A stretch of 64,000 bases of DNA from an uncultured cyanobacterium (GTDB lineage: Bacteria; Cyanobacteriota; Cyanobacteriia; CAKZMO01), in assembly GCA_963719515.1 (NCBI GenBank), contig CAVRCJ010000017.1, positions 64,001-128,000 of the forward strand, given 5' to 3'. Position numbers and translations under genes: made by a program. Shown piece by piece: positions 9,900-51,274 of this stretch (positions within the stretch are counted from its first letter, which is position 1; the number at the start of each line of letters is the position of its first letter). The notes beneath the pieces were generated by a model that made no database searches, was not told the origin of the DNA, and worked only from the letters and a program-made list of their open reading frames with translations.

Positions 9900-10133
9900 A
9901 TGACTTACTCCGCTGAATTGAATTCTGCGTTAGATGCCCCTAGCTATTACCACCTCAATCATTGGGCCGTCATTCGCCTGATGCCCAACATGCAGCGCGC
10001 CGTCCTGACTCGCTTTCGGACGCGCTCTGATGCAGATGGGCATATGAAGTTTCTACGCACCCACAGTCCGCAAAGCAGGTTTCAGGTCGTTTTTGACCCA
10101 CTATCCGCTAGTGATAAATTTCCCTCTCGATAA
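9900..10133 (+). CDS. Small hypothetical protein (77 aa) of a recurring cyanobacterial type
   Basis: ATG start and a W..IRL.PNMQR....RFR.RSDADGH pattern recalled from cyanobacterial hypotheticals. Function unknown. Confidence 0.6.
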   Translation: MTYSAELNSALDAPSYYHLNHWAVIRLMPNMQRAVLTRFRTRSDADGHMKFLRTHSPQSRFQVVFDPLSASDKFPSR

Positions 10134-10148
10134 GCTATGGGGAATGGG

Positions 10149-10532
10149 GTGACATCCTCCCGACGCTGACAGCAAGCTGTACAGCGCGGGCTTCCTCAGT
10201 GACTCCCAGCTATTGCCGAGACATATCCTGAGATAGGTTTATACTCCGCCTGATGCCCCACGGCAGAGTTTTGAATTTTCATCTCCGCGAGGGAGGATAC
10301 GCACTATGTGTCGCAGATACATTTGCAAACTGAGGAACGGGTGACTTGCAGCTTTCGCCTACGGGCCCGTCACACTCTTTGCGGGGTGTATCACCTTGCT
10401 ATCTCTATCATACCAACTGCTAGCCTCAGCGCTGAGCGCACTATCCGCTGTGCATCATTTTGCGGGCGCACTTCGGCTAGCGCGACTCTCATCCCGACGC
10501 TCACCCTGAGCGGGTAGAGCGCGGGGCTTCTC
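10149..10532 (-). mobile_element. Non-autonomous IS200/IS605-type element (MITE/PATE-like), copy 1
   Basis: Near-identical to 50011-50393 in opposite orientation. Subterminal hairpins at both ends, right end ...GGATGTCAC, ACTAGAC immediately left of the element, no target-site duplication, no credible ORF. Confidence 0.85.
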
Positions 10533-10541
10533 GTCTAGTCG

Positions 10542-11579
10542 CTAAAAGAACCAGCCGTAGCTGTGCAGCCCTTTACCCAAAAGATTGACGCCCAGGTAGC
10601 ACACCCAAACGGCAGCAAAGCCAGAAATCGCCAGAATCGCGGGCCGACGGCCCTGCCAGTCGCGGGTGATGCGGGCGTGCAGGTAGGCGGCAAACACCAG
10701 CCAGGTGATCAAAGCCCAGGTCTCTTTGGGGTCCCAGCTCCAGTATGAGCCCCAGGCTTCATTGGCCCAGACGGCCCCAGACACAATGCCAATGGTGAGC
10801 AGGGGAAACCCTAAACCGATCATTCGGTAGCTGATATTGTCTAAGGTGTCGGCTAGAGTCAGCCGTTGAGGAGAGAGCGCAGGGCCGCCCTCAGTTTCTA
10901 CCGCTACGGCAGGCTTATCGAGAATAGCCGTGCGGCCACCCGCCACCTGGGGCAGCTGAGCGGCGGTTTCGAGAGCGGGTTGGGGCACCTCCGCCACCTT
11001 TTGACCGGCCCGGCGCAGCTCGTACTTAACGTTGCGATAGCTGCCGGTGCCCACGGAGCTGCCCCGCAGCGTGACGGACTGCCCCCGCGTCACCACCAAA
11101 AAGGCGATCGCCAACAGCGCCCCCACCATCAGGGCCGCGTAGCTGAGCAGCATGACGCTGACGTGCATCATCAGCCAGTTAGATTTGAGGGCGGGTACGA
11201 GGGGATGGGACAGCTGCATGCTGCTGGGCAAAGACAGGGTAGCAAAGGCGGCAATGCCCATGGCGATGGGGGAAGTAACGGCCCCAACGAAGCGGCTGCG
11301 GCCCATCTGCTCGGCCAATAGCCCCATAGCGGTGACGCCCCAGGCCACGAAAAACAGCGACTCGTAGAGATTGCTCAAAGGGAAATAGCCACCCTCGATC
11401 CAGCGGGCCCCCAACAGCGCCGCAATACAGAGATTGGCGATCGCCAAACCGCCCGTCCCCAGGCTAGAGAGGGCGGGAATGCTGGGGAACGCGACGCTGG
11501 CCCAATAGAGCAGCATGGTTAGAAAGAGGGCGAGGAAGGATGCGTTGTCGAGCCAGCCTTGAAGCGTTACTAAATCCAT
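10542..11579 (-). CDS. ccsA: Cytochrome c biogenesis protein CcsA (system II; often annotated CcsB)
   Basis: WWD motif [18 protein letters not shown], conserved His motifs (MMHV, YLHAR, GLHSYG) and [10 protein letters not shown]. Confidence 0.95.
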
Positions 11580-49622: not shown

Positions 49623-50010
49623 CCGCAGATTGTGGCCCTGCATTGGCGTGGAAGGAGATGACGAACTGCTGCAGTGAGCGGCCCCTTTGAGGCGACGTTA
49701 AGCCTGGCCTCTGCTGGCGGAAACGGTGCCTTGAATGAGCAGGGCAACCCTGAAACCCAATACAGCACGGGATAGGCCCAGAGCAGTTGCCCCAATCATC
49801 AAGGCGCTGATGTAGTCACTGGTGATTTGGAGGTGGGTTAGTCCATAGAGTAGCGGCAATAGGGCGGTGGAAAGCAGGACCGACAGCGCCTCGAACCTGA
49901 TTATCTTTTTGCAGTTATTCTGCACGAAAGTACTGCCGTGGCGTGACCTAAACCGACAGGCGATCGCCACTGGCAGTTTACCGATGTCCCTTAAACTTTA
50001 GCTACTAGAC

Positions 50011-50393
50011 AGGAAGCCCCGCGCTCTACCCGTCAGGGTGTGCGTCGGGATGAGAGTCGCGCTAGCCGAAGTGCGCCCGCAAAATGATGCACAGCCGATA
50101 GTGCGCTCAGCGCTGAGGCTAGCAGTTGGTATGATAGAGATAGCAAGGTGATACACCCCGCAAAGAGCGTGACGGGCCCGTAGGCGAAAGCTGCAAGTCA
50201 CCCGTTCCTCAGTTTGCAAATGTATCTGCGACACATAGTGCGTATCCTCCCTCGCGGAGATGAAAATTCAAAACTCTGCCGTGGGGCATCAGGCGGAGTA
50301 TAAACCTATCTCAGGATATGTCTCGGCAATAGCTGGGAGTCACTGAGGAAGCCCGCGCTGTACAGCTTGCTGTCAGCGTCGGGAGGATGTCAC
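50011..50393 (+). mobile_element. Non-autonomous IS200/IS605-type element, copy 2
   Basis: Differs from 10149-10532 at only a handful of positions. Preceded by ACTAGAC; left hairpin CCCCGCGC..GCGTCGGGA; right hairpin CCCG-CGCTG-TACAG..CTGT-CAGCG-TCGGG, then AGGATGTCAC. Confidence 0.85.
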
Positions 50394-50416
50394 TAGTCAG
50401 CCTATGGCCTGAAGGG

Positions 50417-50781: not shown

Positions 50782-51060
50782 ATGACATTTGAGTGGGACC
50801 CCTCAAAGGCATCCACCAACATAGAGAAGCATGGCATCAGCTTTAAAGAGGCTAAAACCGTATTTGCCAATCCCCTAGCTGCTATCTTCGATGACGAAGC
50901 GTATTCTGAAGGCGAGTTTCGAGAGATTATCATTGGACATTCTCGCCAAAATCGCTTACTTCTAGTTGTTTTCGTGGAGCGATCGCAAAGTATCCGCATC
51001 ATTAGTGCCCGCCCGGCCACCCGTAAGGAGCGTAATGAATATGAGCGAAATGCCTTCTGA
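50782..51060 (+). CDS. BrnT-family toxin (type II TA ribonuclease)
   Basis: FEWD..KA..N..KHGISF.EA..VF and IRIISARPAT..ER..YE. Confidence 0.92.
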   Translation: MTFEWDPSKASTNIEKHGISFKEAKTVFANPLAAIFDDEAYSEGEFREIIIGHSRQNRLLLVVFVERSQSIRIISARPATRKERNEYERNAF

Positions 51061-51274
51061 CAATTCCCAATATTCCGAAGACGACATGCTAGACGAGTAC
51101 AATTTCGATTATAAAAAGGCAAAGCCCAATCGATTTGCTGCTCATAGCGACGCGGAGAGGTTGACCGTTGTAGTTTTGGATGAAGATGTCTCTCAGGTTT
51201 TTACAACCTCTGAGGCAGTCAACAAAGTACTGCGATCGCTCATTGAAGCTATGCCGCAGGGCGCCCGCAAATAA
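51041..51274 (+). CDS. Cognate antitoxin (BrnA-like, ribbon-helix-helix C-terminus)
   Basis: Overlaps the brnT 3' end; EYNFDY.KA.PNRF and LDEDV...F.TSEAVN.VLR.L. Confidence 0.8.
   Translation: MSEMPSDNSQYSEDDMLDEYNFDYKKAKPNRFAAHSDAERLTVVVLDEDVSQVFTTSEAVNKVLRSLIEAMPQGARK

Follow-up and report, generated by a model that had tools for sequence, protein, structure and literature searches.

A gene-less IS605-family element of a cyanobacterium with a predicted omegaRNA of remodelled stem 1 and linker

The window analysed here, a stretch of 64,000 nucleotides from an uncultured cyanobacterium, holds two near-identical copies of a short element that contains neither tnpA nor tnpB. We think it likely that this is a non-autonomous IS605-family element, a so-called PATE (palindrome-associated transposable element), which lives off the autonomous IS605 elements resident in the same genome and bears an omegaRNA that is used by the resident TnpB and has been remodelled in stem 1 and linker. 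The sequence shows that its ends and target motif are those of the parent, that it reached its 53 sites recently and that the full scaffold has been kept. One thing in this looks new: a long form of stem 1 and linker that was seen only in gene-less elements. PATEs, omegaRNA-bearing PATEs and trans-acting stand-alone omegaRNAs have already been published.

Table 1. Positions within the window of the two copies of the element and of their predicted parts
Feature	Positions	Strand	Remarks
Target motif TTTAG	49997..50001	+	Outside the left end; insertion motif of TnpA; predicted TAM for TnpB
Whole protein-free IS605-family element, copy 2, 392 bp	50002..50393	+	53 full copies in the genome
Copy 1, 393 bp	10149..10541	-	Directly after the stop of a 345-aa frame (10542-11579), whose TAG belongs to TTTAG
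Left end	50002..50049	+	AAGC (50014-50017), predicted DNA guide for TTAG; hairpin 50018-50049; common to resident tnpB and tnpA+tnpB elements
Extended -10 promoter candidate	50127..50135	+	Conserved in G002 and G004; predicted start near 50142
5' leader of the predicted RNA	50142..50271	+	Conserved in the genus, weakly structured, z -0.29 (no better than shuffles)
Extended stem 1 and long A-rich linker	50273..50309	+	Stem 50273-50299; pseudoknot loop GGCA (50285-50288); form found only in gene-less elements
Stems 2 and 3	50310..50347	+	Nearest tnpB tails: G111 and the window's own genome (3' part 92% and 87% identical); pairs kept
Right end	50348..50393	+	GAAG (50348-50351); hairpin 50352-50383 = stem 4; TGTC (50388-50391), pseudoknot partner; terminal TCAC
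Predicted RNA guide, copy 2 (host flank)	50394..50409	+	Inferred from TnpB biology (16-nt guide, from the available part of PMC10097598)
Predicted RNA guide, copy 1	10133..10148	-	As for copy 2

Borders, copies and resident elements

A sequence-only reading of this DNA had described two near-identical copies with hairpins at both ends, no tnpA or tnpB frame and no target duplication, and all of these traits are present. Few differences separate the two copies (Table 1), the longest frame in the 392 bp has 78 aa, and nothing at these sites matches TnpA or TnpB. The hairpins are sub-terminal (50018-50049 and 50352-50383), terminal inverted repeats are absent, and so is a duplication of the target. 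Two further claims, a left border at ACTAGAC and TAGAC as the target motif, had to be revised. All 53 full-length copies in the genome start with C[T/G]ACTA[G/A]AC, which places the true border 9 nt further left and this stretch inside the element, and the conserved motif outside the left end is TTAG in 53/53 copies (TTTAG in 47, GTTAG in 3 and CTTAG in 3), the preceding base being random. Because of the common start, the TTAG outside it in every copy and the random base before, we take the element to be 392 bp long with ACTAGAC included. With its left border outside ACTAGAC, the candidate TnpB motif is therefore (T)TTAG rather than TAGAC. The same TTAG also precedes 18/18 of the long elements scored. 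On the other side, the right end GGATGTCAC at 50393 and the two different right flanks stand as described, and the proposal that each insertion acquires a new flank as guide fits what is seen across the genome, where the 53 copies have 53 different right flanks of random sequence.

That the element would recur many times had been a guess, and comparing it by BLAST with the 5.28-Mb genome bore this out: 53 full-length copies are found among 105 matches. These fall into 33 distinct sequences and differ by 3.8 positions on average, which argues for a recent spread. The site of copy 1 is empty in 4/4 genomes of the same genus, the junction there being too diverged for a base-level comparison. A reading of the element as an IStron was ruled out, as no Rfam group I intron match was found and 5/53 copies interrupt a long frame, compared with 184/400 random TTTAG sites.

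Two observations concern the sites themselves. Insertions exactly at stop codons are frequent genome-wide (at window position 10542, for example), and 7/53 copies adjoin a frame of at least 100 codons that ends in the TAG of the motif, compared with 19/400 control sites; such insertions are many because TTAG contains TAG, and its complement TAA. One mini-element (G000:C6:428067-428458, G000 being the window's own genome) lies inside a tnpB of another family and splits that gene.

Which elements could provide the proteins? Between the same ends lie 19 longer elements, of which 16 have tnpB but no tnpA and 3 have both genes in divergent orientation, and two more right ends lie at contig breaks. 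An autonomous parent with shared ends is thus in the genome and carries a Y1 TnpA and a TnpB; at least one such element (C10:312171-313961) has both frames intact. Pfam assigns TnpA to Y1_Tnp, and TnpB to OrfB_IS605, Cas12f1-like_TNB and HTH_OrfB_IS605. Read by eye against known motifs, the resident TnpB has what we take to be the D-E-D residues. Its cluster counts 21 members with the same ends and the TTAG flank, and the protein, encoded for instance at G000:C3:50666-51859, is 398 aa long. In the fragmented assemblies of G002-G004, a TnpB query at E 1e-100 returned no close TnpB. The mini-element and the tnpA+tnpB parent share about 68 nt on the left and about 140 nt on the right, while the middle of the mini is not in the parent; the mini is not a simple deletion product of the present-day parent. 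At the ends, the pairing rule of IS608 presumably applies, by which TTAG would be recognised by the AAGC that precedes the left hairpin, and TCAC by the GAAG ahead of the right one. This pairing of guide and target also fits a second family of minis in this genome, with AAGT and TTAA in 6/6 copies.

The genome is unusually rich in TnpB-like frames, with 69 in 13 clusters. Several tnpB-only elements (G000:C3:50453-50632 minus, which is L103:254-433, and L087, L121, L122, L131 and L133) have a small divergent frame of 48-73 aa in the tnpA position, whose end overlaps the left-end hairpin, like tnpA. Four of these six frames match Pfam RHH_1 (best E 5.9e-7), and a frame of this type may be a repressor of the tnpB promoter.

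The predicted RNA and its long stem 1

By fold, model score and pairing, the last 122 nt of the element qualify as a TnpB omegaRNA scaffold. They fold far better than shuffles (z -3.77), as does the tail of the parent (z -3.87), and both take the same three-hairpin shape. A covariance model (R1) trained on 14 tnpB tails, taken from other genomes and from viral contigs, gives 64 bits for both window copies, at full length. Between the mini and the resident tnpB tail 10 paired letters differ and 37/37 pairs are kept, the pseudoknot included; 4 pairs have changed on both sides (null P 1.3e-4, with pairs chosen by eye on the same sequences). Such conservation might also be a legacy of a tnpB-bearing ancestor. 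Pairing is possible between GGCA in the loop of stem 1 and TGTC at -6 to -3 from the end, a pseudoknot that is 98.4% paired in 16 sequences and shows no covariation. Among the curated Rfam families (HEARO, IS605-orfB and others) none matched the window at the gathering score, and for the element itself, at 5 loci, Rfam gave no match at E up to 5.

The early proposal of an omegaRNA-like right end is thereby upheld in the intact scaffold, and its stem ACTCTGCC/GGCGGAGT and terminal hairpin are real. Less of it survives upstream. A single structured RNA of about 250 nt had been envisaged, but the good fold belongs to the last 122 nt and does not extend to 50142-50271 (z values above and in Table 1). 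The GTGAC/GTCAC stem is weak (median probability 0.06-0.09), and the long-range pair TTCCTCAGT/ACTGAGGAA is a minor fold with a median probability of 0.11, exceeding 0.5 with 10/53 guides. It competes with the conserved stem 2, whose median probability is 0.89.

The part of the scaffold that sets the mini-element apart is stem 1 with its linker. In this long form, stem 1 is longer by 3-4 pairs and 6-7 nt are added between loop and stem 2; it was seen in 17 genomes from 11 cyanobacterial families. The wider search set out from 42 nt that the element shares with an unrelated gene-less one of G052. Patterns of stem 1 then matched in 4/401 genomes and, with a second pattern, in 8/401, and 15/15 new loci of the second search, all picked by motif, have no tnpA or tnpB within 1.5 kb. 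Loci were then picked by model score, to avoid choice by motif. In five of these genomes (30 of 82 matches listed), the long form stands without tnpB at 13/13 loci and the scorable short form with tnpB at 12/12, 5 further loci lying at contig ends. In 150 genomes (27 loci of 87 matches listed), searched with a model built from long forms, with 3 loci from G000 and G002 left out and three long forms called by eye, the long form is again without tnpB (9/9); the 18 short-form loci comprise 14 with tnpB, 3 without and 1 at a contig end. Pooled over the listed loci, some of which recur between the two sets, tnpB lies upstream of 0/22 long forms and of 26/29 scorable short forms. A long form on tnpB was not seen by eye among the 36 tnpB tails listed. 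Because three short-form elements free of ORFs exist, the long form is not required for gene-less persistence. The window's mini-element, from the comparison of these loci, belongs to a wider cyanobacterial gene-less set, in which stem 1 and linker are longer and stems 2-4 are like those of tnpB-linked elements.

Pairing in the long form is well conserved. Stem 1 and linker of the window align gap-free with 15 others, and 97.9% of the cells pair, compared with 34-52% in slid controls; double-change cells number 17 against 4.3 in shuffles, counts that are inflated by kinship among the sequences. Several letters of the long form are invariant in 16/16 sequences. A pattern scan of metagenomes gave 3 matches, all by chance in unrelated GC-rich DNA, a plasmid search gave no match, viral contigs gave 0 matches for two patterns, and a scan of the genome collection gave 1 match (L071), not counted as a separate genome.

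Further upstream, the extended -10 TGGTATGAT noted at 50127-50135 is present. One TGnTAnnnT site in 392 nt arises in 19% of shuffles, and the case for a promoter therefore rests on conservation, not rarity: TG-n-TA-nnn-T is kept in G002 and G004 while other letters change, and the hexamer varies within the consensus only. A -35/-10 scan did not pick up this site. A similar one is found just before the tnpB start codon in many parent elements. The region 50062-50310 has 84-93% identity in G004 and G002, and the leader shows one double-sided change and one matched insertion pair relative to these genomes; 3 sequences and 1 double change are too few for a covariation test. Leader types are mutually unrelated. 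That of the window occurs in 2/16 other genomes of the family and was confined to its genus in the searches, and type A, found in G008, G040, G320, G514 and G540, forms a long hairpin with 8/15 pairs changed on both sides. A small conserved peptide in the leader was ruled out, as type A frames differ between copies (by eye).

Taken from one end to the other, the scaffolds look mosaic in their sequence. In 7/7 minis, other minis come closest to the 5' part, and a tnpB tail to the 3' part; for the window, the 5' part reaches 64-72% identity to other minis and the 3' part 87-92% to tnpB tails. The tnpB tail of the own genome ranks first for 2/7 minis and second for 2 more, which amounts to partial tracking.

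Life cycle, descent and competing readings

How could such an element persist? In the life cycle we propose, the Y1 TnpA of resident tnpA+tnpB copies would peel the mini-element out as single-stranded DNA and paste it 3' of TTAG, a mobilisation in trans that we infer from 53 near-identical copies at unrelated sites. Transcription from its own extended -10 would yield an RNA of some 250 nt that runs on into the flank. The 398-aa resident TnpB, for which about 20 other copies serve as source, would bind the final ~120 nt, probably once the 5' part has been trimmed off, and be guided by the flank. Its cuts would then fall at TTAG plus guide, namely at a donor site left empty by excision or at its counterpart on a sister chromosome, and repair from an occupied copy would restore the element. 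The homing model followed here is that of a preprint (bioRxiv 10.1101/2023.03.14.532601, available part). A match of TTAG plus guide of more than 11 nt elsewhere in the genome was found for 0/71 guides; this absence of self-targets does not discriminate, because random 20-mers give the same distribution.

The purpose of the remodelling is most likely to render a free RNA stable and loadable in trans, needs that arise because the RNA is no longer cut from the tnpB message. As the long form is confined to gene-less elements, it points to selection on the RNA after gene loss and so gives indirect evidence of a function in trans. With a single enzyme and two natural scaffolds side by side, the genome offers a clean test system, and should the longer stem 1 favour loading or stability, a design rule for TnpB editing guides would follow. 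Host genes next to the 53 copies may also be affected, as each copy has a candidate promoter directed outwards through its right end.

A bolder version, which we advance only tentatively, sees in the minis a long-standing lineage specialised as RNA-only parasites of TnpB transposons. A 5' module (promoter, structured leader, longer stem 1 plus linker) would be their own, and the 3' stems and the ends would be exchanged, or co-evolve, to suit the resident TnpA and TnpB family. The module would stabilise a free guide and let it load in trans better than an mRNA-derived guide, so that minis outnumber hosts (53 vs about 21). If true, the mini RNA would be a naturally evolved, improved guide scaffold for TnpB.

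It is unlikely, in our judgement, that the element is an ordinary deletion derivative moved by TnpA, whose RNA is inactive and in which scaffold and promoter passively persist from a tnpB element that was not sampled. Such a derivative would agree with several findings. TnpA alone can explain the copy number, and the leader folds no better than shuffles. The tail of the mini is in frame with the last, C-terminal codons of the parent (+6 nt), which fits descent from an unsampled tnpB, and the leader shares words with tnpB coding DNA: a 10-nt word with the parent tnpB, and common words in two leader types. The shared words suggest an origin of leaders in the final 200 nt of tnpB, with later remodelling, and the leader of the element in the window probably goes back to the tnpB 3' region in this way; a profile made from the DNA of 33 tnpB genes detected no homology 5' of 50255. 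Passive decay, however, does not account for a long form that is on no tnpB, neither among the 36 tails listed nor at 26 tnpB-linked loci, and that in most other genomes adds 7 nt and thereby shifts the frame. Nor does it account for stem 1 and the type A leader covarying among gene-less copies only, or for changes of the -10 hexamer that stay within the consensus.

In the preferred reading, the RNA would be used by the resident TnpB for homing. We find it improbable to a marked degree that it is read instead by a domesticated or nuclease-dead TnpB relative, with the 53 guides serving regulation or targeting. The letters invariant in 16/16 sequences do look as if recognised by a protein, and in ISDra2 the counterpart of the lengthened part forms a triple helix and contacts RuvC, according to the available part of PMC10097598. 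But stems 2-4 and both ends follow the mobile tnpB elements, the second mini family has a similar stem base on the tail of the second TnpB family, the guides are random flanks with no second target, and inspection by eye of the 69 frames in 13 TnpB clusters revealed no obvious dead stand-alone candidate. Least credible is a decoy or switch, in which the RNA would bind TnpB, be held inactive by TTCCTCAGT/ACTGAGGAA and so lower the toxicity of TnpB to the host, letting the family expand: the 9-bp alternative pair does disrupt stem 2 and dominates with ten of the guides, and its leader strand is conserved in G002 and G004, yet chance would, by our estimate, yield about 0.1 such 9-nt complements in stretches of comparable length, there is no covariation, type A leaders have no consistent equivalent, and the pseudoknot and all scaffold pairs are intact.

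Published relatives and other gene-less families

The element is best classed as a PATE carrying a stand-alone omegaRNA, a published kind, because tnpB and tnpA+tnpB elements share its ends and its right end is the scaffold. PATEs were named in Haloquadratum walsbyi (PMC3119063), and omegaRNA-bearing PATE-like elements have been reported in Geobacillus stearothermophilus (bioRxiv 10.1101/2023.03.14.532601). As far as the available parts of these two texts go, PATEs share with the window element the lack of an ORF, sub-terminal hairpins, the absence of a target duplication, IS605 ends and an omegaRNA that needs use in trans; the window element differs from those described there in its conserved promoter candidate and leader, in the stem-1 and linker form of gene-less copies, and in its occurrence across 11 cyanobacterial families.

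Along the same lines, stand-alone omegaRNAs of OMEGA systems are mobilised guide RNAs that come with neither effector nor transposase and have effector loci in the same genome, as is the case here. The available part of PMC10691335 calls their role unknown, cites earlier work for a function in trans, and gives no structural distinction from linked omegaRNAs, unlike the long form in the window. The omegaRNA of ISDra2 overlaps tnpB and has a dispensable 5' part (PMC10097598, available part). It resembles the window's RNA in a scaffold of about 116-122 nt, four stems, a pseudoknot between the stem-1 loop and the last bases, a guide from the 3' flank and a 5' part upstream. The RNA predicted in the window, in contrast, has a gene of its own, its stem 1 and linker are longer, and its motif is TTAG, that of ISDra2 TTGAT; its leader is also under apparent structural selection in some gene-less lineages, unlike the dispensable 5' part. 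In the literature searched, largely open-access main texts, no paper was found that describes a scaffold form restricted to gene-less elements; term searches in PMC12558985, PMC11448079 and PMC13639567 brought nothing further.

Other gene-less families were met on the way. In one of them, from G040 (G040:C1:61060-61189, L218, and 11 similar matches), the type A leader is followed by another kind of stem-1 extension and by a linker close to the tnpB type, as read in 2 copies; this family is a possible recombinant or convergent form, and this other extension with the type A leader hints at convergence. The second gene-less family of the window's genome (G000:C10:332134, L108, and five more) is about 420 bp long, with 6 full copies, the motif TTAA and an extended -10 of its own. 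Its right part is like the tail of a second, 9-member TnpB family, and the base of its stem 1 is similar. A third family of about 18 copies (G000:C4:87309, C3:611223 and others) combines the TTAG left end with the right part of the second family, and owing to these mixed ends its insertion motif may differ from the motif of its would-be TnpB. At window 50782-51274 (+), two adjacent short frames (92 and ~80-100 aa) resemble a BrnT/BrnA-type toxin-antitoxin pair.
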